DNA of 35,572 nucleotides from Dehalococcoidia bacterium (GTDB lineage: Bacteria; Chloroflexota; Dehalococcoidia; GIF9; AB-539-J10): contig DATBWO010000019.1 of the NCBI GenBank assembly GCA_036514775.1, forward strand, positions 1 to 35,572, in the 5' to 3' direction. Shown in pieces: positions 13,297-35,572 of the stretch (positions are counted from its first letter, which is position 1; each line of letters begins with the position of its first letter). A program made the translations under genes and the position numbers. Under the pieces are notes generated by a model. The model was not told the DNA's origin. It was given only the letters and a program-made list of their open reading frames with translations, and searched no databases.

Positions 13297-13401
13297 CATG
13301 CTTGTGGCATCACTACTCAGATGAAGGGGTGCAGTTTCTGAGCTAGTTCAGATAGATGGGTGACACTTTATATGTTTGTAACGTTGGGTAATAACCTCCT
13401 G

Positions 13402-13495
13402 TGTCATTGCGAGCCCCGACCTGTCGGGGCGTGGCAATCTCTATCCCCAGCAGCCCCACAAGATTGCTTCGTCACTTCCGTTCCTCGCAATGACA
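13402..13495. repeat. 94-bp MITE/REP-like element with perfect 12-bp terminal inverted repeats
   Basis: tgtcattgcgag (13402-13413) and ctcgcaatgaca (13484-13495) are exact reverse complements. Internal hairpin ccccgac-ctg-tcggggc and internal pair gcaatct/agattgc. Related copies lie at 20188, 32551 and 34804. Confidence 0.75.
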
Positions 13496-14337: not shown

Positions 14338-14355
14338 ACCCACGCTTAAGTGTTA

Positions 14356-14468
14356 GCTCTCTCCGAGCTGTCTTGCCTAAAGAAAATCCATGGCAAGCAG
14401 ACGGTGGGCTGAAAAGCCTCGAGGGCACAGATAGAAATGCCTGTGCCTCCCGTGCTTGGAAAGGAGGG
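14356..14468 (+). promoter_or_regulatory. Molybdenum/tungsten cofactor (Moco-class) riboswitch candidate
   Basis: GCTCTCTCCGAGC ... GCCTCCC ... GGAAAGGAGGG resemble the conserved Moco-motif blocks as I recall them. P1 can form between CTCTCC (14359-14364) and GGAGGG (14463-14468). Three internal hairpins: cttgcc/ggcaag, gggct-GAAA-agcct, and gcacag/ctgtgc. It sits upstream of tungstate transport and moaAC genes. Confidence 0.72.
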
Positions 14469-14491
14469 AATATGGAACTTGGTTTTGGGAC

Positions 14492-19243: not shown

Positions 19244-19708
19244 ATGGAGTCAAGGCAAATTCGCATGATAGACGTTACCCAGAAAAAAGAAACAGAACGC
19301 CAGGCGATAGCTAAAGGCAAGGTGCAGATGAAGCCTACTACCCTGGAACTTATCCGTAAAGGGGAACTAAAAAAGGGGGACGTCTTAGCCGTAGCGAAAA
19401 CGGCTGGAATCATGGCTGCCAAAGAGACTTACCGCCTTATACCTTTGTGTCACCCTCTCCAGCTCACCCACATTGCAGTTGAATTTGATCTGCCCGAAAA
19501 AGGCTCCGACGAAGTCGGAGTTGAAATCACCGCCAGCGTCAAAGGAGTTGGGAAAACAGGATTTGAAATGGAAGCGCTGGTAGCGGTATCTGTGAGTGCT
19601 CTGACTATTTATGACATGTGCAAAGCAGTGGATAGAGGTATGACCATCGGAGAGATTCACCTGGTAAGGAAGAGTGGAGGTAAAAGCGGGCTTTATCTAG
19701 CCGACTAA
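19244..19708 (+). CDS. moaC: Cyclic pyranopterin monophosphate synthase MoaC
   Basis: Motifs [18 protein letters not shown] and IPLCHPL. ATG 19244 lies 7 nt after a GGAGG SD. Confidence 0.93.
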
Positions 19709-20182
19709 CTCTTGCAGCACCATCTTAACCACTTCGGGAATTGCCTGCTCCACCTCAGGCGTGCATTTCTCGCTAAAGCTAGTAATGTCTTTGGCCTCCA
19801 CAGCGAATATAGTGATTGTTGGAGGCATGGCTAAGTCAAGCATCTTTCCTAATTCCAGAGCAGTGGCAAGGTTTATTTGATGAGGCGAGGAAAAGTGTTT
19901 GGTGAGGGAGAAATCTTCGGGCCCAATACGATATATCTGGCCGGTATTCCCTTCCCTGGTTTGGATGGCATCAATGATAATAACTTTATCATAGCCTACA
20001 ATAGAATCTAAAAGGTTGAGGCCAGCTCCGCTTGTTTCAGCTACAGTTACCTGGGGGCTGTTGAGTTGCTTCCCAACCTCTCGCGCCACCCTAATCCCCG
20101 CTCCGTCATCAGAGAGAATGGGATTTCCAATGCCTAAAACCAGGGTTTTCACCTTTCCTCTACAAGAACAATAATCACTCAC
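19697..20182 (-). CDS. [NiFe] hydrogenase maturation endopeptidase (HybD/FrhD family)
   Basis: [19 protein letters not shown] signature. The true start may be the internal GTG at 20152. The 3' end overlaps the convergent moaC by 12 bp. Confidence 0.85.
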
Positions 20183-20187
20183 CCTGC

Positions 20188-20265
20188 TGTCATTCTGAGC
20201 CCCGACTTGTCGGGGCGAAGAATCTTGGTGCTCTTTTTAGACCCTTCGCTTCGCTCAGGGTGACA
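20188..20265. repeat. 78-bp copy of the TIR-bounded palindromic element
   Basis: tgtcattctgag-ccccgacttgtcggggc-gaagaatct ... ctcagggtgaca. It fills most of the mvhA-protease spacer. Confidence 0.75.
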
Positions 20266-20296
20266 TGGAGTGGTTGAATGCTTTTGCGAAAACTTA

Positions 20297-21766
20297 CTAT
20301 GAGATGCCCTGGCTCAGTTTCTTAAGCTCGTTGCCCTGGGCATCATAGATGGTCACTTCCAGAGGCAATTGCCCGGGGAGAGAGTGTGTGGCACAGGACA
20401 AGCAGGGGTCATAGGGGCGCCACGCCATCTCAATACGGTTAAGCAATCCCTCAGTTATCACTACTCCGGGCTTTATGAAGTCTTCGGCTGCTTTCTTAAT
20501 TGACATAAACAAAGGAGCATAGTTATTGGTAGTGCCCACGATCAAGTTACACTTCTTTATCACCCCTCTTTCATCAGTTATGTAATGATGGGTGAGGGTA
20601 CCTCGCGGTGCCTCCACGATGCCCACTCCTTCATCGGGCGTTGCCGTCGGTATGTTGCGAATATCCGTGCTGGTTATTTCAGGGTCTTGACTGAGCTCCA
20701 GCAACCTTTCAGCAGCATAAAGGAGTTCAATCAAACGTGCCCAGTGGGTGGCCAGAGTATAGTTAGCTGGCTTGCCCCCGAGAGTGGAGTACATTTTTTC
20801 ATACTCTTTCTGGGCTAGAGGAGTTGCCATACCATCAGCGGCATTCAACCGGGACAGAGGTGTAGCTCGATACACTCCACTATTTTTGCCGTCAACAAAA
20901 CCTTTCCAGCCAATTTTCTTGAGATAGGGAAACTTGAGATAAGTCCAGGGCTCGACTCGTTCAGCTATATGGTCCAGATAGTCCCGGGGAGCATACTTGC
21001 AGAACTCTTTACCGTCAGGGCCAACTACTCGTACTTTACCATCATAAAAGTTGACCTTATTGTTTTTATCAACCAAGCCCATATTATAGGACTTTTGAGT
21101 AAACGTATCGCTCAGAATCATGTCCAAGTACACTTTATTTTTGAGAACAACGTCGTCGAAGACTTTGAGTGATAATTTGCCAAACTCCACCGACGCTTTG
21201 GCTATTTCTTCTATCTTGGCTCTTTCCTCTTCATTTATGGTTCTGCTCACGCCGCCGGGCAGTCCAAAACAGGGGTGTATGGGACGGCCACCGACTGTTT
21301 GAATAATCCAGTGATTTTGCTTACGGGTATTGATTACAGCACCACCTAGCTCCAATCCTACCTTGGCGATTACTCCCAGGATATTGCGTTCCGCAGGATG
21401 AGCATCTGGCCCCATAACGAAATCAGGGGCAGCAAGGATGTAGAAGTGGGTAGTGTGGTCAGTCACGTAGAAAGCGCTGTAGAGGAGTTCGCGAAGCTTT
21501 TTGGCAGTGCTGGTCGGCTCGACATGAAACAGGTCATCTAAAGCTTTGGTGGCTGCCATGTGGTGGGCTTCAGGACAAACGCCGCAGATACGCTGGGTTA
21601 TCTGAGGCATATCCTCAGCCGGACGTCCCTCAGAAAATTTCTCGAACCCTCTGAGTTCAGGAACCTGGAAATAAACATTGGCTACACTGCCATCCTCTTT
21701 GAGGAAGATGGTAATTTTGCCATGACCTTCAAGGCGGGTAATAGGGTCAATCGTTATCTTTTTCAT
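20297..21766 (-). CDS. mvhA: [NiFe] hydrogenase large subunit, MvhA-like (group 3c-like)
   Basis: RLEGHGKI, the N-terminal Ni-binding motif RICGVCPEAHH and the C-terminal DPCLSCATH, followed by a 28-aa extension of the kind removed by the maturation protease. Confidence 0.92.
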   Translation of the reverse strand: MKKITIDPITRLEGHGKITIFLKEDGSVANVYFQVPELRGFEKFSEGRPAEDMPQITQRICGVCPEAHHMAATKALDDLFHVEPTSTAKKLRELLYSAFYVTDHTTHFYILAAPDFVMGPDAHPAERNILGVIAKVGLELGGAVINTRKQNHWIIQTVGGRPIHPCFGLPGGVSRTINEEERAKIEEIAKASVEFGKLSLKVFDDVVLKNKVYLDMILSDTFTQKSYNMGLVDKNNKVNFYDGKVRVVGPDGKEFCKYAPRDYLDHIAERVEPWTYLKFPYLKKIGWKGFVDGKNSGVYRATPLSRLNAADGMATPLAQKEYEKMYSTLGGKPANYTLATHWARLIELLYAAERLLELSQDPEITSTDIRNIPTATPDEGVGIVEAPRGTLTHHYITDERGVIKKCNLIVGTTNNYAPLFMSIKKAAEDFIKPGVVITEGLLNRIEMAWRPYDPCLSCATHSLPGQLPLEVTIYDAQGNELKKLSQGIS

Positions 21767-22722
21767 TTTATCCTCGCCCTCCTCAGTAATGAATCTGGCA
21801 GACTGTAACGGTAGAAAGTGCCTGCCGGGTCGGGAATATCATCAATTATCCTCTGAATCTCCTCAGGGTCATTGGAGTCAATGATAGACGAGAGAGCACT
21901 CAAAAAATGAGCTCCTTGGTCAACTGCGCCTTCTACCGGCCCGTAGCAGCCGGTGCAAGGCATATTGGCCTGGGGACAAAGAGCGCCACAGCCCCCTCGA
22001 GTAGCTATGCCATAGCACAATAACCCCTGCTCCAGCAGACACTTTTCCGGCTCAGGGATTATTTCATAAGGGCGATAGAATTTTTTGATTTTCTTTTCCT
22101 CTTTCTTACGGGGGCACTCATCGCAAACAGCCTTTACCGAGTGGCTTATGACAGTCCCTTTCGGTGGTAACTTGCCTGAAATCAAAGCTTCAAGGGCAAG
22201 CCAGGTAGTCTTTTCTTCGGGTGGACAACCGGGGACGAAATAATCGACATCCACGGTTTGGGCTAGAGTCTTCACCGTGTCGTAGAACTCAGGAAGCTCG
22301 AGTTCGCCCTCGGGCACCTTAACTTTCGTCTGAGGATAGATTTTCTTAGGATTATCAGTAGACGGCGTTTCAATGTAGACCCGGTCGAACGTCAGCTGCC
22401 GATTGTAGAAGTTGGATAGCCCGGGGATACAGCCTTCATAAGAACAAGAGCCATAAGCTATCATTATTTTGGATTTGGCTCGCAGAAGATGGGCCATGTG
22501 CTCATTTTCTTCATTCCGAATAGCTCCGTTGAAAAGGCAGACATCTACACTCTTATCCGCCATCTTCTCTACGTCAGCATACTTGAAATCCAGGCCCACC
22601 GGCCAGAACACGATGTCGGCAACCTCAGCTAGCTTCAGTATCTTTTCATGTATAGCCAGAGTTGCAATCTCACATCCACCACAACTAGCCGCCCAATAAA
22701 GAGCTATCTTAAGTTTAGCCAT
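21763..22722 (-). CDS. mvhG: [NiFe] hydrogenase small subunit, MvhG-like
   Basis: [14 protein letters not shown]-terminus and multiple Fe-S Cys clusters ([20 protein letters not shown]). ATGA overlap with mvhA. Confidence 0.9.
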
Positions 22723-23158
22723 GTCTTGCCTCCTTAGAACTTTGCTGGGGAGGACCTAGCGAACTTGGCCCAAGGTTTTTTATGGTTTGGGTAAAATTAT
22801 TAGTTACCTCAGCAAATTTTGCTCCTTCAGACGCAGAAACCCACTCCAGCCGAACTCTTTCTTCCTCTATCCCAAGCTGTTTCAACATCTTCTTAAGCAG
22901 CGGGACGCGGCGCATTGTCTTGTAATTCCCTTCGATATAGTGGCAATCACCGGGATGGCAACCAAGAATTAACACGCCATCAGCACCAATGCTAAGTGCC
23001 TTAAGGACAAAAAGAGGACTTACCCTGCCGCTACACATCACCCTGATTATCCTTATATTGGGGGCGTACTGCATTCTGGAAGTGCCAGCCAGGTCAGCAC
23101 CAGCATAAGAGCACCAATTACAGCAAAAAGCTACTATTTTTGGTTCAAAGTTGTCCAT
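22715..23158 (-). CDS. mvhD: Methyl-viologen-reducing hydrogenase delta subunit MvhD
   Basis: [15 protein letters not shown] and GCHPGDCHY, the MvhD [2Fe-2S] domain signature. Confidence 0.9.
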
Positions 23159-23164
23159 CTAGCC

Positions 23165-24562
23165 TTACCTCCTCAAATACTCATCCATATCCCTTGCTGC
23201 ACGGCGAGCAGCGCCCATAGCGCTTATGACCGTAGCGGCGCCGGTAACTATATCCCCACCAGCCCAGACTCGGTCCTTCATTGTCTTGCCGGTAGTCTCA
23301 TCAGCCATTACCGTATCATGCTTAGTTGTCTTCAAATCAGGAGTAGTTTGAGCGATAAGGGGATTGGGACGGGTGCCTAAGGCAGCTACCACCATATCCA
23401 GATCCAGGATAAACTCACTTCCTTCTTTGACAACAGGGCGCCGCCGACCGCTCTCATCAGGCTCACCCAGCCCCATCTCGTAACACTCCATGCCAACTAC
23501 CCAGCCCGACTCATTGCCGATATACCTCTTCGGGTTGGTCAGCAGCTTGAACTGGATTTCCTCCTCCTTGGCATTCTCAACTTCCTCACGACGGGCAGGC
23601 ATCTCTACCTCTGAGCGACGGTAGATAATGTAAACAACGTCAGCCCCAAGCCGCAGAGCACACCGGGCTGAGTCCATAGCTACATTACCACCACCAATCA
23701 CTGCCACCCTTCTGCCCACCAACACCGGCGTATCATATTCAGGAAACTGGTATGCCTTCATCAGATTAACCCGGGTCAGGAACTCATTCGCTGAATAGAT
23801 ACCATTTAAGTTCTCGCCGGGAATGTCCATAAACATGGGTGCTCCGGCACCAGTACCCAGGAAAATAGCATGGTAGCCGCTCTTTAGTAATTCATCCAGC
23901 GTCACCACCTTTCCCACTACCGAATCCAGCTCAATCTTCACTCCCAGGGAAGCGACGTAGGCAACCTCAGCCTGCACAATTTCTTTGGGCAGCCTGAACT
24001 CGGGGATGCCATACATAAGCACCCCGCCAGCCACATGCAATGCTTCAAAAAGAGTAGCGCTATAGCCGAGCTTGGCTAAATCGGCAGAGGCAACCAGTCC
24101 GGCTGGTCCTGAGCCGACCACCGCCACCCGTTTACCAGTTGGTCTGGGCGGCTTTGCTCTGGGGTTTAGAGCTCTCATATTAGCCCGCTCCCAATCAGCC
24201 ACGTAACGCTCCAAGCGTCCGATGGCAATAGGCGCTCCTTTCTTAGCTAGCGAGCATGCTTGTTCACACTGTGTCTCTTGCGGGCAGACCCGCCCGCAGA
24301 TGCCGGGCAGGCTATTCTTATCCTTGAGTATCCTTACCGCTTCGGGCATATTATCGTCAAGGATAGCCTTGATAAAGCCGGGGATATCTATCTCCACCGG
24401 GCAGCCATCAGTACAAGGATGCTTGGGACACTGGAGACAACGGCTTGCCTCGGCTTTAGCCTGCTCGGCGCCGTAACCCAAGGCAACCTCGGTAAAGTTT
24501 TTACCCCGTGTCTTGGGGTCCTGCTTTATCATTGGCTCTCTGTTGAGATTTGCCTTAGCCAT
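23165..24562 (-). CDS. nfnB: NfnB / glutamate synthase small-chain-like NADPH oxidoreductase (SudA-like)
   Basis: CLQCPKHPCTDGCPVEIDIPGFI and GICGRVCPQETQCEQAC Fe-S motifs, plus two dinucleotide folds (VVGSGPAG, VIGGGNVAMD). Confidence 0.9.
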   Translation of the reverse strand: MAKANLNREPMIKQDPKTRGKNFTEVALGYGAEQAKAEASRCLQCPKHPCTDGCPVEIDIPGFIKAILDDNMPEAVRILKDKNSLPGICGRVCPQETQCEQACSLAKKGAPIAIGRLERYVADWERANMRALNPRAKPPRPTGKRVAVVGSGPAGLVASADLAKLGYSATLFEALHVAGGVLMYGIPEFRLPKEIVQAEVAYVASLGVKIELDSVVGKVVTLDELLKSGYHAIFLGTGAGAPMFMDIPGENLNGIYSANEFLTRVNLMKAYQFPEYDTPVLVGRRVAVIGGGNVAMDSARCALRLGADVVYIIYRRSEVEMPARREEVENAKEEEIQFKLLTNPKRYIGNESGWVVGMECYEMGLGEPDESGRRRPVVKEGSEFILDLDMVVAALGTRPNPLIAQTTPDLKTTKHDTVMADETTGKTMKDRVWAGGDIVTGAATVISAMGAARRAARDMDEYLRR

Positions 24563-24583
24563 ATATGTTGTTCAGACCTCCAT

Positions 24584-25423
24584 TCAACAACGCTTGCCCA
24601 CCTGAGCCTGCCAATGCTCAAAAGAGCGTTTCTCCTCATCAAGGTAAATACGCTGCCGGGCTGAGAGCAAGTCCCAGTCTACCTGATGCCCGTCAAAATC
24701 AGGCCCGTCCACGCAGGCAAACTTGGTTACGCCACCAACGGACACCCGGCAACAGCCACACATCCCGGTGCCATCAACCATTATTGGATTCAGGCTAACA
24801 ATAGTTTTCACCCCGAAAGGCCGGGTGGTCAGGGCACAGAACTTCATCATGATGGTCGGGCCAATGGCAATGACTCGGTCAACTTTCTCCCCACTCTCAA
24901 GCAGCTCCTTCAGTGGCACAGTTACTACCCCTTTGCGACCATACGTGCCATCATCGGTAGTAACTATCAGCTGGTGGCTGACACTGCGTAGCTTATCTTC
25001 CCAGAAGAGTAAGTCCTTGCTCCGTGCCCCCAAAATGGAGATAATCTTGTTTCCCTTCTCTTTTAGCGCCCTGGCAATAGGCGCTATGGGCGCAGCACCA
25101 ACCCCTCCCGCCACACAGACTACAGTACCAAATTTGTCAATATGCGCTGGTACACCAAGGGGACCAACAAAGTCAGCAATAGCGTCACCGGCTTTCAGAA
25201 ACGCCAGCCTAAAGGTTGTCGCTCCCACTTCCATAAACACTGTGGTAACACTGCCTTCCTTCTCATTCCAGTCAGCAAGCGTCAGGGGAATACGCTCGCC
25301 CCTTTCATCAATCCTGATGACAACAAATTGCCCCGCCAGCGCTTTTCTAGCAACTGCCGGTGCTTCGATTTTGAAAAGATGAATTTTCGTCGCTAAAGTC
25401 TCTCTATAAGTAATCCGAAACAT
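24584..25423 (-). CDS. nfnA: NfnA / sulfide-dehydrogenase beta-like FAD/NAD(P)-binding subunit (SudB-like)
   Basis: Ferredoxin-NADP-reductase-like fold (GQFVVIRIDERGERIPLTLADW, CVAGGVGAAP) and the C-terminal [2Fe-2S] motif CGCCRVSVGGVTKFACVDGP. Confidence 0.9.
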   Translation of the reverse strand: MFRITYRETLATKIHLFKIEAPAVARKALAGQFVVIRIDERGERIPLTLADWNEKEGSVTTVFMEVGATTFRLAFLKAGDAIADFVGPLGVPAHIDKFGTVVCVAGGVGAAPIAPIARALKEKGNKIISILGARSKDLLFWEDKLRSVSHQLIVTTDDGTYGRKGVVTVPLKELLESGEKVDRVIAIGPTIMMKFCALTTRPFGVKTIVSLNPIMVDGTGMCGCCRVSVGGVTKFACVDGPDFDGHQVDWDLLSARQRIYLDEEKRSFEHWQAQVGKRC

Positions 25424-25438
25424 TTTGTAAACTCCATC

Positions 25439-25579
25439 TCAATTCACTTGGCTAAATAAAGCTTCTACCTGAGCTAGAATTTGCTCATCGGTGAAGTGAT
25501 GCATGGCAATAGCTCCCGAGGGGCAGGCAGCACCTGTTACAGGAAAACCCCACAATTTTGGGCTGAAACCCGTTCCTTT
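25439..25579 (-). pseudogene. Degenerate duplicate of the hdrA 3' end, in frame after the hdrA TGA
   Basis: 46 codons (KGTGFSPKLWGFPVTGAACPSGAIAMHHFTDEQILAQVEALFSQVN*) continue the hdrA frame past its stop. They align with the HdrA C-terminus KGCGVCAGACPSAAITARQFTNEEIVAQVEGVLV, but three of the four cluster cysteines are lost. Confidence 0.55.
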
Positions 25580-27550
25580 TCATACCAGTACTCCTTCTAC
25601 CTGAGCCACAATCTCTTCGTTAGTAAACTGTCTTGCAGTTATCGCTGCGCTAGGACATGCACCAGCACAAACCCCGCAACCTTTGCACAACGCCTCATTA
25701 ATTTGGCAGGCTTTCTTTTCCTCGTCAAAAGAAATAGCACTAAAAGGACAGAGTTCAAGACAGATCTTGCAACCGGAGCATTTCTCTTCATCAATGGCTG
25801 AAACGGCGGCCTCGAGTGTAATTCTGCCTTTGCTTATCATTGCCAGGACCCTTGCTGCTGCTGCTGAAGCTTGGGCTACAGTATCGGGAATATCCTTGGG
25901 ACTCTGGCAACAACCGGCAACAAAAATCCCCTCAGTAGGTGTAGCTACCGGATCAAGTTTAGGATGCCTCTCCAGGAAAAAACCCGTCGCCTTTTGACTT
26001 ATAGTAAAACGATTTGCCACTTCTCCAGCATCGGCTTGAGGCTCCACAGCATTACACAAAATAACCATGTCCACCGGAATACGGAGCATGCTTCCCAGAA
26101 GAGTATCCTCAGCGACCACGATAAGTTTTCCCTTTTCTTCATCATTTATAGCCCGATCGGTGACTTGAGCTACCTTTCCCCGGACAAAGTTGACTCCTTC
26201 GTCTGAAAGACGCTTATAAAATTCCTCGTATCCATCTCCGAAAGAGCGCATATCTATGTATAGCTGGTAGACATCCGCGTTTGGTAGCTCCTCTTTAATA
26301 TAATTTGCTTGTTTTAAGGCATACATACAGCAAACACGCGAGCAATACTCGTGGTAATTCTTATCTCGGCTGCCAACACAATGCACTATGGCCACGCTCT
26401 CTGGTTCCCTGCCATCTTTAAGTTGGATTTTCCCTCCTGTGGGGCCTGTAGGGCTCACTATCCTCTCAAATTCAAGTCCGGTTATAACACCGTCGTATTT
26501 ACCATAGCCATATTGAGAAATGCGTGTTGGATCCATGAGGCCGAAACCAGTGGCTAAGATTATCGAGCCCACTTCAACCTCGAGAATCTGATCCTGCTGA
26601 TTAAAGTCTATTGCCCCCGCGCTGCATAACTTTATGCAAGCTCCGCATTTCTTTCCCCCCGATTTGATATAAATACAGATATTGGGATCAATAGTGGCAA
26701 CGTTGGGCACAGCTTGGGGAAAAGGAATATAAGCAGCTTTTCTCTTTGTTAGGCCTAGCTCAAATTCGCTATCTGTTTTGTAAGGGCATTTTTGCATGCA
26801 TACAGCACAGCCAGTACACTTACTCTCATCCACATATCTTGCCTTCTTTCTTATTTTTGCCTTGAAATTTCCCACGTACCCTGAAACCTCCTGCACCTCA
26901 CTATAGGCTAACAGTTCAATGTAAGGGTGTGAGCCTACCTCACTCATCTTTGGAGTAAGGATACATTGAGAACAATCTAAAGTGGGGAACGTCTTGTCAA
27001 GCTGAATCATATGCCCGCCGATTGAGGGCTCCCTTTCTACCAAATAGACTTTATGCTCAGAGTTGGCAATTTCCAAAGCAGCTTGAATTCCGGCAATCCC
27101 TCCGCCTACAATTAGAGTATTAGGATTATAGGGGGCCTCCTTAACTTCTAAGGCCTCCTGGTAATGAACACGCCTCACCGCAGCGTCAACCAAAGCCTTC
27201 GCTTTCTCTGTATTTGCCTCTTTGTCTTCATTGATCCAAGAGCATTGCTCCCTTATATTTACCATTTCGAATAGATAACGATTTAAACCGGCGCTCTCAC
27301 AAACCCGGCGGAATGTGAGCTCATGCAACCTCGGGGAGCAAGAAGCGACTATAACACGATTAAGGTTATATTCCTTAATGTCTTTTCTAATAAGGTCTTG
27401 CCCTGGGTCGGAACACATGAATACATAATCACGGGATAGCACTACTCCAGGCAATGTCCCGGCATATCTTGCTACCTCTGCCACGTCAACTGTTGCTGCA
27501 ATATTCACTCCACAGTGACAAACATAAACACCAATCTTCACTTCTTCCAT
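25580..27550 (-). CDS. hdrA: Heterodisulfide reductase subunit A (HdrA-like flavoprotein)
   Basis: VYVCHCGVNIAATVD N-terminus, FAD fold IVGGGIAGIQAALE, inserted ferredoxin domain CTGCAVCMQKCP and C-terminal CSGCKICLELCP...CKGCGVCAGACP. Confidence 0.93.
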   Translation of the reverse strand: MEEVKIGVYVCHCGVNIAATVDVAEVARYAGTLPGVVLSRDYVFMCSDPGQDLIRKDIKEYNLNRVIVASCSPRLHELTFRRVCESAGLNRYLFEMVNIREQCSWINEDKEANTEKAKALVDAAVRRVHYQEALEVKEAPYNPNTLIVGGGIAGIQAALEIANSEHKVYLVEREPSIGGHMIQLDKTFPTLDCSQCILTPKMSEVGSHPYIELLAYSEVQEVSGYVGNFKAKIRKKARYVDESKCTGCAVCMQKCPYKTDSEFELGLTKRKAAYIPFPQAVPNVATIDPNICIYIKSGGKKCGACIKLCSAGAIDFNQQDQILEVEVGSIILATGFGLMDPTRISQYGYGKYDGVITGLEFERIVSPTGPTGGKIQLKDGREPESVAIVHCVGSRDKNYHEYCSRVCCMYALKQANYIKEELPNADVYQLYIDMRSFGDGYEEFYKRLSDEGVNFVRGKVAQVTDRAINDEEKGKLIVVAEDTLLGSMLRIPVDMVILCNAVEPQADAGEVANRFTISQKATGFFLERHPKLDPVATPTEGIFVAGCCQSPKDIPDTVAQASAAAARVLAMISKGRITLEAAVSAIDEEKCSGCKICLELCPFSAISFDEEKKACQINEALCKGCGVCAGACPSAAITARQFTNEEIVAQVEGVLV

Positions 27551-27551
27551 T

Positions 27552-28709
27552 TCATTCCCTCATCATTGCCTCGGCAACAAGCTCAGTTATATCTTTAACC
27601 TGCATAGTCTCTGCCTTGCCCATAGAGAGCACACTGTCCCTATAGTTGAGGAAGCAATAAGGGCAGGCAAGAGCTATAATATCAGCGCCTTTTTCAACAG
27701 CCTGCTCCACTCTTATATCAGAGAACCTTTCCCCTTTCGGCGTATCCATCCAGATTCTACCACCGCCACCACCACAACAAAGACCATCTTCACGAGCATC
27801 GGGAAACTCTATTAATTCCAAGCCGGGAATGCTTTGCAGGATCTTCCTTGGCTCATCATAAATATTATTATGTCTACCCAGATAGCAAGGGTCAGAATAA
27901 ATTACCTTTTTGTTTATCTCTCTGGATAGCTTTAATTTCCCTTGTTCGATAAGCGAAGCCAGGTATTGGGTGGTATGAAGTACTTCGAATTTACTCCCTA
28001 GCTCAGGATATTCATTCTTAAATGTGTGGTAGCAATGAGGTGAGGAAACTACCACGGTCTTAACGCCCTTGCTGTTAAAGAGATTAATATTGTTTTGAGC
28101 CAGACTTTGAAACGTCTCTTCATGCCCGGCTTTTCTAATTGCCTCGCCACAGCATTTTGCTTCAGTGCCTATAAGGCCATAATCAATCCCAAGCTTATTG
28201 AAGATTGTGGCATTAGCCCGAGCCACTGTTTTTGTATCGGGGTCATAGGATGGAACACAGCACGGAAAATAAAGTATTTCGGTACCCGGAGCAAAAAATT
28301 TCACATTAAGGTCTTTAGCCCAGTCATTTCGCTTTTCCGCCGCCTCACCAAACGGATTACCTACACCGGCAATGTTCTTAGCTGAAATCCTCAAGGCATC
28401 AGGGACAACTCCGATGCCCAGGCTAGCTACGGCTCGGCGTATAGCTCTCATTACATCGATTATCTCGACGCCTCGAGGGCAGCGCTGAACGCAAGCCCCA
28501 CAGGTAGCGCAGATCCAAACGTCCTCAGCCGCGAAATCAGTTGCTCCCAGTTGAGCTTCATGCATGATGCGGCGAACCATAAAGCTTCGCACTGTATTCC
28601 AGGGACAGGTTCCGGTGCATAGACCACACTGGTAGCACAATTTAAGGGGTTCACCACCAGCCTCGAGTATCACGTCTGTAGCTTCTTTGTAAGGACTTAG
28701 CACTTTCAT
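27552..28709 (-). CDS. Fused HdrC-HdrB (HdrD-like) Fe-S / CCG-domain protein
   Basis: N-terminal 2x[4Fe-4S] motifs CYQCGLCTGTCP and CATCGACVQRCP. The C-terminal half has two CCG-type cysteine regions (FPCCVPS...KCCGEA; DPCYLG...GLCCGGGGG...ACPYC). No TM segments. Its stop is 1 nt from the hdrA start. Confidence 0.87.
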   Translation of the reverse strand: MKVLSPYKEATDVILEAGGEPLKLCYQCGLCTGTCPWNTVRSFMVRRIMHEAQLGATDFAAEDVWICATCGACVQRCPRGVEIIDVMRAIRRAVASLGIGVVPDALRISAKNIAGVGNPFGEAAEKRNDWAKDLNVKFFAPGTEILYFPCCVPSYDPDTKTVARANATIFNKLGIDYGLIGTEAKCCGEAIRKAGHEETFQSLAQNNINLFNSKGVKTVVVSSPHCYHTFKNEYPELGSKFEVLHTTQYLASLIEQGKLKLSREINKKVIYSDPCYLGRHNNIYDEPRKILQSIPGLELIEFPDAREDGLCCGGGGGRIWMDTPKGERFSDIRVEQAVEKGADIIALACPYCFLNYRDSVLSMGKAETMQVKDITELVAEAMMRE

Positions 28710-28741
28710 TTTAGTTTACCTGACCTTTCAGAATTGGCTAC

Positions 28742-28785
28742 AAAAAAAGGTGGCCTTACGAAAGCATTGTAACCACCCTTTTTCT
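28742..28785 (-). terminator. Intrinsic terminator (A-tract/stem/T-tract, bidirectional in appearance)
   Basis: Minus strand reads aaagggtgg-ttac-aatgctttc-gtaa-gg-ccacc followed by TTTTTTT. It lies 110 nt after the permease stop and 33 nt before the hdrCB start. Confidence 0.6.
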
Positions 28786-28814
28786 CCGTAACATACATTG
28801 AAGCACGGCTGGGA

Positions 28815-28843
28815 AGTATAACAAATCCCGGCAAAGAAGGCAA
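28815..28843 (-). promoter_or_regulatory. Candidate sigma70 promoter upstream of the terminator hairpin
   Basis: Minus strand reads TTGCCT-17 nt-TATACT. If functional, the terminator at 28742-28785 would lie in the hdr operon leader. Confidence 0.35.
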
Positions 28844-28894
28844 GCCCTCCTGGGACATCACTCGGTTAAGGGGATTACCGATTTAAAGGTGGAT

Positions 28895-32550: not shown

Positions 32551-32588
32551 AGATTCTTCGCCCCGACAAGTCGGGGCTCAGAATGACA
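32551..32588. repeat. Half-copy of the TIR element, inverted orientation
   Basis: The reverse complement of 32551-32588 is identical (38/38) to 20188-20225 (tgtcattctgagccccgacttgtcggggcgaagaatct). Confidence 0.85.
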
Positions 32589-32608
32589 GAAGGGAGTGTT
32601 AAACAATC

Positions 32609-33775
32609 TTGGAGATAGAGAAACTGAAGCTAAAGGTACATGATAGCGTCGAATCACAAAGGCGGCAGCTTATCCAGTTGAGCTTGAATATCCATGATAA
32701 CCCCGAGCTGGGCTTTAAGGAGGAGAAAGCCTCAGCTTGGCTTACTAGCTATCTTGAGAACAGCGGATTTCACGTGGAGCGAGGCATTGCCGGCTTGGCT
32801 ACAGCCTTCCGAGCGACATACGGCGAGGTGAGCCCAAGAATCGCCTTGCTTGCTGAATACGATGCTTTACCCAAAATAGGACATGGCTGCGGGCATAATA
32901 TAATAGGTGTTTCAGCAGTCGGGGCTGCTGTGGCTAGTAAGTCTATCATTGACCAGTTAGGAGGCAGCATTGTGGTTCTGGGTACTCCCGGAGAGGAAGT
33001 CTTCGGTGGCAAGATAGACATGGTGAAAGCGGGAATCTTCAAAGAAATAGATGTGGCTATGATCGTACATCCTAATACCAGGAACATGCCGACCGAAGAT
33101 GCGCTCGCCTGTAGCTCCTTGGAAGTGGAGTTTTTTGGCCAGGCAGCTCACGCTGCTGGTCAACCTCACAGAGGCATAAACGCCCTTGACGCTATGATTT
33201 TAGCTTTCACCTCGATAAATTCACTGCGCCAGCACATAAGAGGGGATGCACGCATCCATGGCATAATCACTGACGGAGGTGAAGCGCCTAACATAGTGCC
33301 TGCCCACAGTGCTGCCGTGTTTTTGGTACGTGCTCTAGATGATGATTATCTTGCTGAGCTGAAGAATAAGGTTCTGAACTGTTTTACAGGCGCATCTGTA
33401 GCTAGCGGGGCAAGATTGGAACATAGATGGAGAGATAGGACTTATGCTCCGATGAAAAACAATATGACCTTAGCCGGGCTATTTAAGCAAAATCTAGAAT
33501 CGCTGGGGCGCAAAGTAGAAGCTTTCGACCCTCATTTTGGCCTGGGCAGCACCGATATGGGAAATGTCAGTCAAGTGGTACCATGCATACATGCCACAGT
33601 AGCCATTGCTCCCCTTGAGGTAGTGATACATACACCGGAGTTTGCCGCAGCCGCCGCTTCGCAAGCAGGACAGCAAGGCTTAATGGATGCAGCCAAGACA
33701 ATGGCTATGACCGTGGCTGATATCCTCCAGCCAGGAACGATTGATAAGATTAAGCAAGAGTTCTACCGTGGTTAA
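32609..33775 (+). CDS. M20-family amidohydrolase (AbgB/hippurate-hydrolase-like)
   Basis: ELGFKEEKAS..., the metal ligands in GHGCGHNIIG, and GTPGEE. 388 aa, TTG start. Confidence 0.85.
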   Translation: MEIEKLKLKVHDSVESQRRQLIQLSLNIHDNPELGFKEEKASAWLTSYLENSGFHVERGIAGLATAFRATYGEVSPRIALLAEYDALPKIGHGCGHNIIGVSAVGAAVASKSIIDQLGGSIVVLGTPGEEVFGGKIDMVKAGIFKEIDVAMIVHPNTRNMPTEDALACSSLEVEFFGQAAHAAGQPHRGINALDAMILAFTSINSLRQHIRGDARIHGIITDGGEAPNIVPAHSAAVFLVRALDDDYLAELKNKVLNCFTGASVASGARLEHRWRDRTYAPMKNNMTLAGLFKQNLESLGRKVEAFDPHFGLGSTDMGNVSQVVPCIHATVAIAPLEVVIHTPEFAAAAASQAGQQGLMDAAKTMAMTVADILQPGTIDKIKQEFYRG

Positions 33776-33896: not shown

Positions 33897-34814
33897 ATGG
33901 GCAAAAATTACCAGGTAGTCATCATTGGTGGTGGACCGGCGGGCCTCACCGCCGGGTTGTATTGTGCCCGCTCGAGGCTTAAGACTTTGCTTATCGAAAA
34001 GGGAGTAATTGGCGGGCAAATAACCAACGCCGAGCGAGTGGAGAATTACCCTGGCTTTCCCAAAGGTATTTCAGGTATTGAGTTAGGACAACTTATCCAT
34101 GAGCAAGCCACTAGCTATGAATTGGAGACCTTGCTTGCCGAGGTTATCAAAGCAGTACCCAGCCCGAGGCATAATCTGGTCAGTACCAGTGAAGGCGATT
34201 TTGTATCTGAGTCGATAATCATTGCCTCTGGCTCGCAATTTCGCAAACTAGGCGTGACCGGGGAAGATAAATTTGTGGGTAAGGGAATTTCCTATTGTGC
34301 TACCTGTGACGGTCCTTTATTCAAAGGTAAAACAGTGGCTGTAATAGGTGGCGGCGATGCTGCCGTCACTGAGGCTCTCTACCTGAGCAAATTTGCTTCC
34401 TCGGTTAAGGTCATCCACCGTCGCAGCCAGCTTCGAGCCAACAAGATATTGCAGGAAAGAGCTATGGCCGAACCCAAGATAGAGTTTATTTGGGATACTG
34501 TAGTAACCCAAATTAAAGGCGATGGGCTAGTTAAGCAACTCATGCTAAAAAGCAACAAAAATGCTAAAATATTAACATTAGAGCTGGCGGGTATTTTTGT
34601 GGCTATCGGCTCAGAGCCCAATAGTGCTCAGTGGCGGGGATTGTTGCCTTTAGATGAAGGGGGCTACATAATCGCCACTGAACTCATGGAAACGAAGATT
34701 CCAGGAATATTTGCTGCTGGAGATGTTCGCCATAATTCAGCCAGGCAGGCGATAACTGCGGCTGGGGATGGCGCTACTGCTGCTATGTCAGCAGAGAGAT
34801 TTCTGTCATTCTGA
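33897..34814 (+). CDS. trxB: Thioredoxin-disulfide reductase
   Basis: VIIGGGPAGLTAGLY, the redox-active CATCDG, the second fold VIGGGDAAVTEA, and FAAGDV. Confidence 0.93.
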   Translation: MGKNYQVVIIGGGPAGLTAGLYCARSRLKTLLIEKGVIGGQITNAERVENYPGFPKGISGIELGQLIHEQATSYELETLLAEVIKAVPSPRHNLVSTSEGDFVSESIIIASGSQFRKLGVTGEDKFVGKGISYCATCDGPLFKGKTVAVIGGGDAAVTEALYLSKFASSVKVIHRRSQLRANKILQERAMAEPKIEFIWDTVVTQIKGDGLVKQLMLKSNKNAKILTLELAGIFVAIGSEPNSAQWRGLLPLDEGGYIIATELMETKIPGIFAAGDVRHNSARQAITAAGDGATAAMSAERFLSF

Positions 34815-34831: not shown

Positions 34832-35443
34832 ATGAAAGTTGTTTTACTAGAAGACGTCCCCGGAAAGGGAAAAGCTGGAGAGATAAAGGAGGTAAGCAAA
34901 GGGTATGCCAAGAATTTCCTTTTGCCCCGGCGTTTAGCTTTGGTAGCTACCTCTGCGGTCATTAAGCAAGTAGAGTCCAGGCTAGAGAAGGAGAAGCTTG
35001 AGGAAAGTATTGACCGGGATAAACTAGCTGAACTGGCTCAGCAAATTGAGGGGAAGGCAATTCGTTTTAGCGCTCGCATGGGTGCCGGAGAACGCTTGTT
35101 CGGCTCTATTACCGCTGCTGATATAGCTGAAGAATTAAGTCGGGTCATAGGTTCTGTTATTGATAAGAAGAAGATAGACATAGAGGAATCTTTACGCAAA
35201 ACAGGCAGCTATGAAGTAGCCGTTAATTTGGCCAGCGACATTAAGCCGAAAATCACAGTGGTTATCGAGGAAGAGAAAGAGATAGAGATAAAGAAAGAGA
35301 AGGCGAAGGAGAAGACGAAAGCGAAAGAGAAAGCGAAGGAGAAGGAGGACGAGAAGGAGAAAGAGGACGCGAAGGAGAAAAAGAAGGAAAAGAAAGAGGA
35401 GAAGGAGAAGGAGAAGGAGAAGGAGAAGGAGAAGAAAGAGTAA
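34832..35443 (+). CDS. rplI: 50S ribosomal protein L9 with ~55-aa Lys/Glu-rich C-terminal extension
   Basis: MKVVLLEDVPGKGKAGEIKEVSKGYAKNFLLPRRLA N-terminus. The canonical L9 length ends near KITVVIEEE and is followed by a KEKAKEK...EKEKEKEKEKEKKE tail. Confidence 0.9.
   Translation: MKVVLLEDVPGKGKAGEIKEVSKGYAKNFLLPRRLALVATSAVIKQVESRLEKEKLEESIDRDKLAELAQQIEGKAIRFSARMGAGERLFGSITAADIAEELSRVIGSVIDKKKIDIEESLRKTGSYEVAVNLASDIKPKITVVIEEEKEIEIKKEKAKEKTKAKEKAKEKEDEKEKEDAKEKKKEKKEEKEKEKEKEKEKKE
35277..35440 (+). repeat. Purine-rich tract including a perfect (GGAGAA)x6 microsatellite
   Basis: Six perfect GGAGAA units at 35398-35433, an uninterrupted all-purine run at 35371-35440 (70 nt), and only occasional C/T back to ~35277. 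Confidence 0.9.
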
Positions 35444-35445
35444 GC

Positions 35446-35572
35446 ATGGCAGAAGAAAAATTACCACCCCACGATATCGAAGCTGAGGAAGCAGTAATTG
35501 GATCTCTGCTTATTGACCCTGAGGCTGTATTGAAAGTTGCCATTTCCCTCAAGCCCGAGGATTTTTTTTCGG
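35446..35572 (+). CDS. dnaB: Replicative DNA helicase DnaB, N-terminal fragment (runs off the window)
   Basis: MAEEKLPPHDIEAEEAVIGSLLIDPEAVLKV is the canonical DnaB N-terminus, in the conserved rplI-dnaB order. Confidence 0.85.
   Translation, partial: MAEEKLPPHDIEAEEAVIGSLLIDPEAVLKVAISLKPEDFFS

Follow-up and report, generated by a model that had tools for sequence, protein, structure and literature searches.

A compact hdr-nfn-mvh operon of an uncultured Dehalococcoidia bacterium appears to be a reduced form of a larger redox gene cluster

The 35,572-nt stretch of DNA analysed here (the window) is contig DATBWO010000019.1, positions 1-35,572 of the forward strand (assembly GCA_036514775.1), from an uncultured Dehalococcoidia bacterium. 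On its minus strand, at 19697-28709, it carries eight genes that encode a [NiFe]-hydrogenase (MvhAGD) and its maturation protease, HdrA and a fused HdrC-HdrB protein, and the transhydrogenase NfnAB. Comparison with related loci indicates that this locus has been pared down from a larger hdr-nfn-mvh redox cluster, which belongs to one Dehalococcoidia subclade, and that its tight packing is derived, arising from two recent deletions and not from an ancestral design. We document the gene content of the locus, the sequence-based family membership of its products, its conserved synteny and its rearrangement history. On balance we lean towards reading the operon as an Mvh/Hdr bifurcating hydrogenase that is co-expressed with an ordinary NfnAB and would be coupled to it via a shared ferredoxin pool.

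Gene content and family assignments

The operon comprises eight intact open reading frames (ORFs) in the order hdrCB, hdrA, nfnA, nfnB, mvhD, mvhG, mvhA and protease. Gaps of 1 nt (hdrCB/hdrA), 156 nt (hdrA/nfnA), 21 nt (nfnA/nfnB), 6 nt (nfnB/mvhD) and 114 nt (mvhA/protease) separate neighbouring genes, and mvhD/mvhG overlap by 8 nt and mvhG/mvhA by 4 nt. An earlier note on this DNA, made from the letters alone, had listed these genes and junctions with a set of diagnostic motifs; all of its coordinates and junction lengths were reproduced, every motif it quoted was found in the ORF translations, and its gene identities were borne out by Pfam and NCBIfam, which are concordant along the operon (CCG x2 plus Fer4; HdrA; DHODB_Fe-S_bind; Fer4_20 plus Pyr_redox_2; FlpD; Oxidored_q6; NiFeSe_Hases; HycI). 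Its description of the setting as bacterial and non-methanogenic also holds. The 80 best genome matches of MvhA are almost all Dehalococcoidia or Chloroflexota metagenome-assembled genomes, the rest of the window carries housekeeping genes (secA, prs, glyA, hrcA, dnaK, PEPCK-like, rluD-like, nusB, fabD and yceD), and no methanogenesis genes were found among the window genes.

The hydrogenase is encoded by mvhA (20297-21766, minus strand, 489 aa; large subunit of group 3c type, all-cysteine, without selenocysteine), mvhG (21763-22722, minus strand, 319 aa; small subunit) and mvhD (22715-23158, minus strand, 147 aa; [2Fe-2S] adaptor subunit of standard length). The L1 and L2 motifs of MvhA, RICGVCPEAHH and PYDPCLSCATH, contain both cysteine pairs of the published large-subunit definition, ICGxCxxxH plus DPCxxCxxH (PMC6085437). 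In NCBIfam, MvhA scores 407 bits with VhuA and 170 bits with the next family. Among PDB entries the best match is MvhA 5odc_F (393 bits), nearly equalled by the NiFe hydrogenase 7t2r_D (390 bits), which we take to be the Acetomicrobium mobile enzyme with a non-Hdr partner; the group 3d entry 5xf9_D reaches 321 bits, group 3a ~110 bits and group 3b ~90 bits. By profile and PDB scores, MvhA is therefore nearer Mvh/Vhu than groups 1, 3a, 3b and 3d. The partner subunits agree, MvhG matching Pfam Oxidored_q6 and NCBIfam VhuG (243 bits, against 80 bits for group 3b HydD) and MvhD matching Pfam FlpD (198 bits) and NCBIfam VhuD (139 bits). In addition, mvhG, mvhD and the maturation protease gene are neighbours of mvhA, with overlapping junctions among mvhDGA. 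From its sequence, then, the hydrogenase has group-3c (Mvh-type) character, as had been suggested earlier. We also considered a group 3b NADP-linked sulfhydrogenase, since the gamma subunit of that group is NfnA-like, and rejected it: the HydA/ShyA models reach 109-159 bits against 407 bits for VhuA, and HydG reaches 50 bits on NfnA against 420 bits for NF004862, a model of Nfn type.

The maturation endopeptidase (Pfam HycI, TIGR00072; minus strand) ends at 19697. Its longest ORF starts at 20182 (161 aa), and its true start is probably 20152 (151 aa), as called on the 99.9% identical contig L001 and as judged from homology to relatives, which begins at 20151; this start would make the mvhA/protease spacer 144 nt. 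At the other end, the protease ORF overlaps that of moaC by 12 nt (19697-19708), and the mod-moa operon is convergent with the hydrogenase operon.

HdrA (hdrA, 25580-27550, minus strand, 656 aa) is a canonical type I HdrA that aligns end to end with the solved HdrA 5odc_A (738 bits, 1-654 against 1-649) and matches HdrA2/HdrA models at 640-840 bits. It has the FAD (TrxR-like) domain, the N-terminal cluster, and inserted and C-terminal ferredoxin domains, with Pfam Fer4 hits at residues 233-325 and 586-640. The hdrCB gene (27552-28709, minus strand, 385 aa) encodes an HdrC-like 2x[4Fe-4S] domain fused to two CCG domains (HdrD/TfrB-like). Pfam detects Fer4_8 and two CCG stretches (109 bits), and the translation contains CxxCxxCxxxCP twice, KCCGE...HCYH and DPCY...LCCGGGGG...CPYC, that is, two complete CCG domains. 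Its best NCBIfam model is TfrB at 155 bits, below the 385-bit cutoff; the HdrB model TIGR03288 gives 34 bits against a cutoff of 345 bits, and PDB comparison gives 78 bits for HdrC and 30 bits for HdrB. By these scores the HdrC part is ordinary and the CCG part is only weakly like methanogen HdrB. In one relative (L089:1-809, minus strand), genes for TusA, a DsrE2-like protein and FlpD are divergent from hdrCB. A tblastn search of the relatives' loci for TusA/DsrE2 found them, besides L089, in L068 only, far from the hydrogenase. We regard the L089 neighbourhood as a weak lead that hints at a protein persulfide as the substrate of HdrCB.

The NfnAB subunits are full-length. NfnB (nfnB, 23165-24562, minus strand, 465 aa; large subunit with two [4Fe-4S] clusters, bifurcating FAD and NADPH site) scores 590 bits against T. 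maritima NfnB 4ylf_B, 511 bits against P. furiosus NfnI-L and 562 bits against NCBIfam TIGR01316, without large indels. Its alignment to 4ylf_B retains CLQCP..C..GCP, CGRVCPQE.QCE (cysteine/glutamate), two GxGxxG motifs and YRRS..MPAR; the arginines of the NADPH site are kept as well. NfnA (nfnA, 24584-25423, minus strand, 279 aa; small subunit with [2Fe-2S], FAD and NAD(H) site) scores 367 bits against P. furiosus NfnI-S 5jca_S, 287 bits against T. maritima NfnA 4ylf_A and 420 bits against NF004862, and in the alignment to 5jca_S it keeps the DGTGMCG.CR...FAC motif of the [2Fe-2S] cluster with its Asp and three Cys ligands. Alignment to solved NfnAB structures and Pfam searches revealed no extra docking domains in either subunit, both being of standard length.

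Rearrangement history of the locus

The fullest form of the cluster is found in the related locus L086 (relatives are given L numbers) and also in L004, L009, L014, L019 and L022. Alignment of the window to L086, L013, L059 and L004 shows collinearity that is broken at 25579/25534 and 23166/23165, and three changes set the window apart from the fullest form. The first, deletion (a), covers ~5.9 kb, starting at codon ~18 of the first mvhD and stopping ~95 nt short of the end of a short hdrA. It took the second mvhD, the second hdrCB, most of the short hdrA and a GltD-inserted hdrA, which in L004 (1385-4117) and L086 (3671-6403) encodes an HdrA of 910 aa whose insert consists of Fer4_20 plus Pyr_redox_2. 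The 156-nt hdrA/nfnA spacer is the scar of this deletion. At its upstream side lies the 5' relic of the second mvhD (25529-25583, minus strand), which translates to MKRNGFQPKIVGFSCNRCC, can be aligned with the 5' end of the upstream mvhD that L013 keeps intact, and has an ATG that still overlaps the hdrA stop codon (ATGA). At its downstream side lies the 3' relic of the short hdrA (25439-25534, minus strand), which encodes ...ACPSGAIAMHHFTDEQILAQVEALFS, retains the original junction to nfnA and is ~88-89% identical to the hdrA 3' ends of L086, L013, L059 and L004. A GGTGCT microhomology at the join is common to both relics. The spacer had been described as filled by an hdrA relic; that relic is present, but the filling is chimeric and includes the mvhD relic too. 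In contig L002 (99.7% over the aligned stretch) the short-hdrA frame is still open upstream; the 5' part of this contig was used with caution. The tail of L002 (3192-3609) switches from mvhD into a high-GC RlmE-like frame and is probably an assembly chimera, for which reason a 270-aa MvhD fusion called on it was discarded.

The second change, deletion (b), left the 6-nt nfnB/mvhD junction (23159-23164, minus strand). The corresponding spacer measures 107-222 nt in 17 relatives, and gap sizes, alignment of the leader described below and the breakpoint at 23166/23165 identify the junction as the scar of a lost mvhD leader. Both unusual junctions recur gap-free in contigs from other samples, L001 (99.9% over 12,683 nt) and L003 (99.5% over 3,536 nt), and are therefore no assembly artefact.

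The third change, (c), is the insertion of a short repeat with a palindromic CCCCGACAAGTCGGGG core (20177-20296, minus strand) into the mvhA/protease spacer. L086 has 22 nt between its called mvhA and protease genes and lacks the repeat. The previous description of a 114-nt spacer filled by a repeat was right as to the repeat, which has two other copies in the window, but not, probably, as to the length (144 nt, as above). The three copies (13364-13431, 20177-20296 and 32551-32626) make up a dispersed family with the core CCCCGAC(A/T)(A/G)GTCGGGG and the flank TCAGAATGAC.

Other relatives have been rearranged in ways of their own. L087 and L059 reached the compact order independently, and their hdrA (L087:5145-7115, L059:4247-6232) is an in-frame chimera of the first hdrA and the short-hdrA C-terminus that abuts nfnA. 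L013 and L006 have other partial deletions, including an ORF that joins the mvhG N-terminus to the short-hdrA C-terminus (L006:5826-6188). This comparison marks the region as a hot-spot for recombination between paralogous modules. Another natural fusion, an MvhD::HdrCB protein of 527 aa, is encoded at L012:4575-6158.

The transcription units appear to have changed with these deletions. In relatives (18 aligned), the nfnB-mvhD spacer contains a conserved promoter-like leader, in which an extended -10-like box is followed after ~35 nt by the hairpin AAGGGTGG-loop-CTACCCTTTTT, and then by a U-run and a ribosome-binding site. It is seen at L004:8500-8616, in L006, L013, L023, L007 and others, and is present with nfnB, a regulator gene or a MetV-like gene upstream. 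A similarly built leader precedes hdrCB in the window (28710-28850, minus strand) and in relatives; for this type of leader as a whole, the hairpin can be written AAGGGTGG-loop-(C/T)(C/A)ACC(C)TTTTT. In the window this leader has a promoter-like site (28815-28843, minus strand; TTGCCT, 17 nt, TATACT with a TG extension), which is a consensus match alone and whose box is conserved in L059, L087 and L013. Between this site and the hdrCB start codon, folding places a hairpin and U-run (28744-28779, minus strand), also conserved in relatives. The motif AGGGTG..YACCYTTTT has its single match in the window in this leader, against 0.03 expected by chance. Searches of Rfam with the window hdrCB leader and the L004 mvhD leader returned no family match. 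The element may be an attenuator or regulator site shared by the hdr and mvh units.

Since mvhD has its own leader in the relatives, at least two transcription units are apparent there, one with the hdr genes and nfnAB and the other with mvhDGA and the protease gene. The window lineage has lost the mvhD leader, and the hdrCB leader would therefore serve all eight genes. Folding (z-score 0.05) and a terminator scan found neither a terminator nor a strong structure in the 156-nt spacer. A promoter/terminator scan of 19-31 kb gave counts not above shuffled expectation and so cannot by itself split or join transcription units. Our comparison thus suggests that two deletions, together with an insertion elsewhere in the operon, fused separate units of the relatives into one operon in the window strain. 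The genes had been described earlier as one tightly coupled operon: the packing is real and recurs in L001 and L003, but it is derived, and mvhDGA has its own promoter-like leader in relatives.

Conserved synteny and the role of NfnAB

To place the operon among its relatives, a synteny map was made in which the window proteins were located on 80 species-representative loci. Of 23 assessable species-level loci whose MvhA is at least 84% identical to that of the window, 18 have nfnB immediately before mvhD; of ~41 assessable loci with MvhA 75-81% identical, none does. In the latter the order is hdrA-mvhD-hdrCB-hdrA-mvhD-mvhG-mvhA-protease, or else mvhDGA precedes a second, group-3b-like hydrogenase. 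The nfnB-mvhD order was also found in the metagenome contigs L086, L087, L089, L094-L097, L143 and L147. L007, L020, L021 and L023 have mvhDGA (MvhA 88-94% identical) without nfnAB; upstream of mvhD, L007 and L020 have a MetV-like protein and a polyferredoxin-MvhD fusion and L023 has a regulator, L023 carrying a second hydrogenase operon besides. By these counts the nfnAB-mvhDGA linkage is limited to one Dehalococcoidia subclade. The earlier note had named a lack of conserved synteny as grounds against its proposal; given the 18 of 23 close species, the order is conserved. A further suggestion, that the anion permease encoded upstream could supply the substrate, was not borne out, and the permease is rejected here as part of the system: a homologue of it was found in no related locus, and in L059 and L087 nusB is followed directly by hdrCB.

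To ask how special the linked NfnAB is, we counted the downstream neighbours of nfnB in 80 metagenome relatives, binned by NfnB identity to the window. At identities of at least 85%, mvhD lies directly downstream in 4 of 4 loci; the count is 0 of 21 at 75-85%, 3 of 24 at 65-75% (these being a second nfnAB paralogue of the same cluster) and 0 of 15 at 55-65%. L084, for example, has an 81%-identical NfnB in a stand-alone nfnAB locus without hydrogenase or hdr genes. Because the relatives at 75-85% stand alone, the linked NfnAB is best placed as a young branch nested among ordinary ones, and its sequence gives no sign of a new interface. NfnAB, canonical by sequence, would most likely work as a free heterodimer exchanging electrons with soluble ferredoxin.

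We infer the electron path, its direction, the substrate and the quaternary structure from the subunit families, as follows. Electrons from H2 would pass from MvhAGD, via the [2Fe-2S] cluster of MvhD, to the HdrA flavin, where HdrA would bifurcate them, one to HdrCB for thiol/disulfide chemistry and the other to ferredoxin. The fused HdrC-HdrB (CCG) protein would be the reductase for a disulfide or persulfide. NfnAB, as a free heterodimer, would use reduced ferredoxin and NADH to form NADPH. All steps could also be reversed, allowing reductant to be disposed of as H2. The operon would accordingly act as an H2-to-ferredoxin-to-NADPH redox-balancing unit in which NfnAB is co-expressed and not wired into the complex. 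The earlier composite-module interpretation stands as regards gene identities, bacterial context and synteny. It is weakened as regards a single tightly coupled unit, for the coupling is derived, NfnAB is canonical and has stand-alone relatives, and MvhDGA also occurs without nfnAB.

Several observations weigh against this reading. The site between hdr and mvhD is held by two diverged nfnAB paralogues, with ~90/90% and ~50/67% identity (NfnA/NfnB) to the window, and both paralogues stand in tandem upstream of mvhD in L089 and L026. Further, at least three independent rearrangements left nfnAB in its place between hdr genes and mvhD: the deletion in the window, the change that made hdrA an in-frame chimera in L087/L059, and the one that gave L089/L026 their tandem nfnAB pairs. 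Finally, Hdr-free four-gene operons, in which a GltD/NfnB-family flavoprotein gene is followed by mvhD-mvhG-mvhA, are common in Dehalococcoidia. The flavoprotein (~597 aa) has a C-terminal 2x[4Fe-4S] domain and 2078 homologues at E < 1e-30, and the gene order was confirmed in the four loci inspected (L023:1908-6639, L091, L092 and L093, 6001-10731). With such a flavoprotein encoded directly upstream of mvhDGA, a direct electron link between a GltD-family protein and MvhD is plausible. These operons seem to encode an NAD(P)-linked hydrogenase of Mvh type that is so far uncharacterised. Beside the operon, L091 and L092 have a divergent NuoE-like gene, a molybdopterin-protein gene and a gene for a 1029-aa NuoF-GltD fusion.

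A rival reading is that NfnAB is a physical part of a hard-wired Mvh-Hdr-Nfn assembly with two flavin-based bifurcation sites, one Hdr-type and one Nfn-type. The low-potential electron of HdrA, or electrons from MvhD, would then be handed directly to the [4Fe-4S] clusters of NfnB, bypassing free ferredoxin, one soluble machine would couple H2 to disulfide reduction and NADP+/NAD+, and the window deletions would have streamlined its operon. We consider such a supercomplex unlikely, although several points are consistent with it: in 18 of 23 close species nfnAB has hdr genes on one side and mvhD on the other, a placement that has survived several independent rearrangements; all eight window genes are packed at 1-21 nt or with overlaps, save for the two relic- or repeat-filled spacers, the longer of which lacks a terminator-like structure; and flavoprotein-mvhDGA operons occur in the same class. 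There are precedents as well, in that GltD-inserted HdrA, which the ancestral-type cluster encodes, is predicted to work with MvhADG in Bathyarchaeota (PMC12054007), and in that an MvhD-like adaptor joins two bifurcation modules in class II benzoyl-CoA reductase (bioRxiv 10.64898/2026.04.10.717634). However, the adaptor of the latter, BamF, is >100 residues longer than the usual MvhD, whereas NfnA, NfnB and MvhD of the window are of standard length and without docking domains. Moreover, near-identical MvhDGA are paired with NfnAB types that are ~50-69% identical to each other, or with none, NfnB relatives at 75-85% identity are stand-alone, and a promoter-like leader separates nfnB from mvhD in relatives.

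The Hdr-free operons raise a further alternative, in which the locus encodes two enzymes: NfnAB-MvhDGA would be a [NiFe]-hydrogenase that is independent of Hdr, linked to NAD(P) and possibly bifurcating, and in which MvhD docks on NfnB, and HdrA-HdrCB would be a distinct enzyme that has lost its own MvhD. Besides the frequency of such operons, this account draws on the two mvhD genes of the ancestral-type cluster, one after hdrA and one after nfnB (L086, L013), on the position of nfnAB in L012, L015 and L018, where distant relatives have the second hdrA of the order hdrA-mvhD-hdrCB-hdrA-mvhD-mvhG-mvhA, and on the almost equal score of MvhA against 7t2r_D, the enzyme with a non-Hdr partner. Yet the hdrA-linked mvhD has been lost in the window, L059 and L087, which leaves HdrA with the mvhG-adjacent MvhD as its sole adaptor; the canonical MvhD-HdrA pairing therefore fits better. 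The leader of the relatives groups nfnAB with the hdr genes and not with mvhDGA, and NfnAB has not diverged from its stand-alone orthologues. We judge the two-enzyme account improbable.

Least probable, in our view, is that the juxtaposition is neutral, nfnAB having landed and stayed in a recombination hot-spot of paralogous modules without functional relation to the hydrogenase or Hdr. The many rearrangements, gene fusions and relics across the relatives, the repeat insertion and strain-level polymorphism, and the restriction of the linkage to one young subclade would all be accommodated by chance. Against this, the order is kept in 18 species-level genomes, two nfnAB paralogues occupy the same site, and independent deletions always left nfnAB between hdrA and mvhD. 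The partners, too, all handle ferredoxin or pyridine nucleotides, a redox theme noted in RBG-1 as well (PMC3903129).

The locus bears on a wider question. Anoxic sediments, peat and aquifers harbour Dehalococcoidia in abundance, and most of the members that do not dehalogenate have yet to be cultured. To our knowledge, little has been established about how these members connect H2 with ferredoxin and pyridine nucleotides. The operon is a compact, eight-gene candidate for an H2-to-NADPH route via bifurcation that is kept in ~18 species-level genomes, and its larger and smaller natural variants show which modules are dispensable. If NfnAB were wired in, the locus would represent a new pairing of bifurcating modules and a test case for partner choice by MvhD-type adaptors; if not, as we favour, it would be a clear case of operon-level coupling between ferredoxin-producing and ferredoxin-consuming bifurcating enzymes.

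Elsewhere in the window, a modA-modB-modC-DUF364-moaA-moaC operon is preceded by a molybdenum/tungsten cofactor (Moco) riboswitch (14349-14482, plus strand, 72 bits). A thioredoxin-reductase-like flavoprotein (305 aa) is encoded at 33897-34814 (plus strand), ~5 kb from the hydrogenase operon, and the end of the window (35255-35460, plus strand) has a low-complexity coding repeat rich in Glu and Lys. A second palindromic repeat family, unrelated to that in the mvhA/protease spacer, has copies at 639-702, 712-775 and 1294-1357.

Comparison with known systems

A full-text search of papers open without subscription turned up none that places nfnAB between hdrA and mvhD. Within the same limits, it also turned up none that describes this exact subunit set, in agreement with the earlier note. 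The closest counterpart of the Mvh/Hdr part is MvhAGD-HdrABC of hydrogenotrophic methanogens (5ODC, 8RVU, 7BKB), which has the same subunit families and cofactor motifs and would share the path proposed here, from H2 through MvhD to the HdrA flavin and bifurcation. In contrast to that complex, the window has a bacterial host, HdrC and HdrB are fused, the CCG part is only weakly HdrB-like (30 bits), so that its substrate may well differ from CoM-S-S-CoB, and nfnAB is interleaved between hdrA and mvhD. NfnAB itself corresponds to the T. maritima enzyme (4YLF/4YRY) and P. furiosus NfnI (5JCA), its subunits being full-length with cluster ligands and dinucleotide motifs kept; unlike in those cases, the nfnA-nfnB pair (21-nt gap) is placed inside an hdr-mvh operon. 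FlxABCD-HdrABC of Desulfovibrio is an NADH-linked Hdr system, without a hydrogenase, in which the NfnA/HydG-like FlxA and the MvhD-like FlxD, with FlxB and FlxC, stand beside HdrABC. We rejected an identity with this system, as the window has a GltD-type NfnB and a [NiFe]-hydrogenase in place of the polyferredoxin-type subunits FlxB and FlxC, and the subunit families are different.

Among genomic precedents, the non-methanogen RBG-1 has NfnAB in one large cluster with cytoplasmic MvhADG/HdrABC, and these were read as ferredoxin-dependent complexes (Castelle et al. 2013, PMC3903129). RBG-1 is of a different lineage, however, its cluster adds complex I-like, PFOR and OGOR genes, and neither the hdrA-nfnAB-mvhD order nor a single operon was described (PMC3903129). 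In Bathyarchaeota, type III HdrA, which has an inserted GltD domain, was predicted in 2025 to work with mvhADG, as a prediction only (PMC12054007); the paper that defined type III HdrA surveyed methane-metabolising archaea only. The combination of a GltD/NfnB-family module, HdrA and an Mvh hydrogenase is common to both, and L004 and L086 carry such an HdrA, whereas the window encodes its GltD-family protein separately, as a canonical NfnB alongside NfnA, and has lost the GltD-inserted HdrA by deletion. The nearest architectural parallel to two joined bifurcation modules is BamB-I, a class II benzoyl-CoA reductase in which an HdrA-type module and an HdrBC-fusion-like subunit are joined by an MvhD-like adaptor to a second bifurcating module (bioRxiv 10.64898/2026.04.10.717634). 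There, in contrast to the window, the second module is of HydBC/NuoEF type and not Nfn-type, the adaptor BamF is much longer than the usual MvhD, and the catalytic subunit is of the tungsten AOR type.

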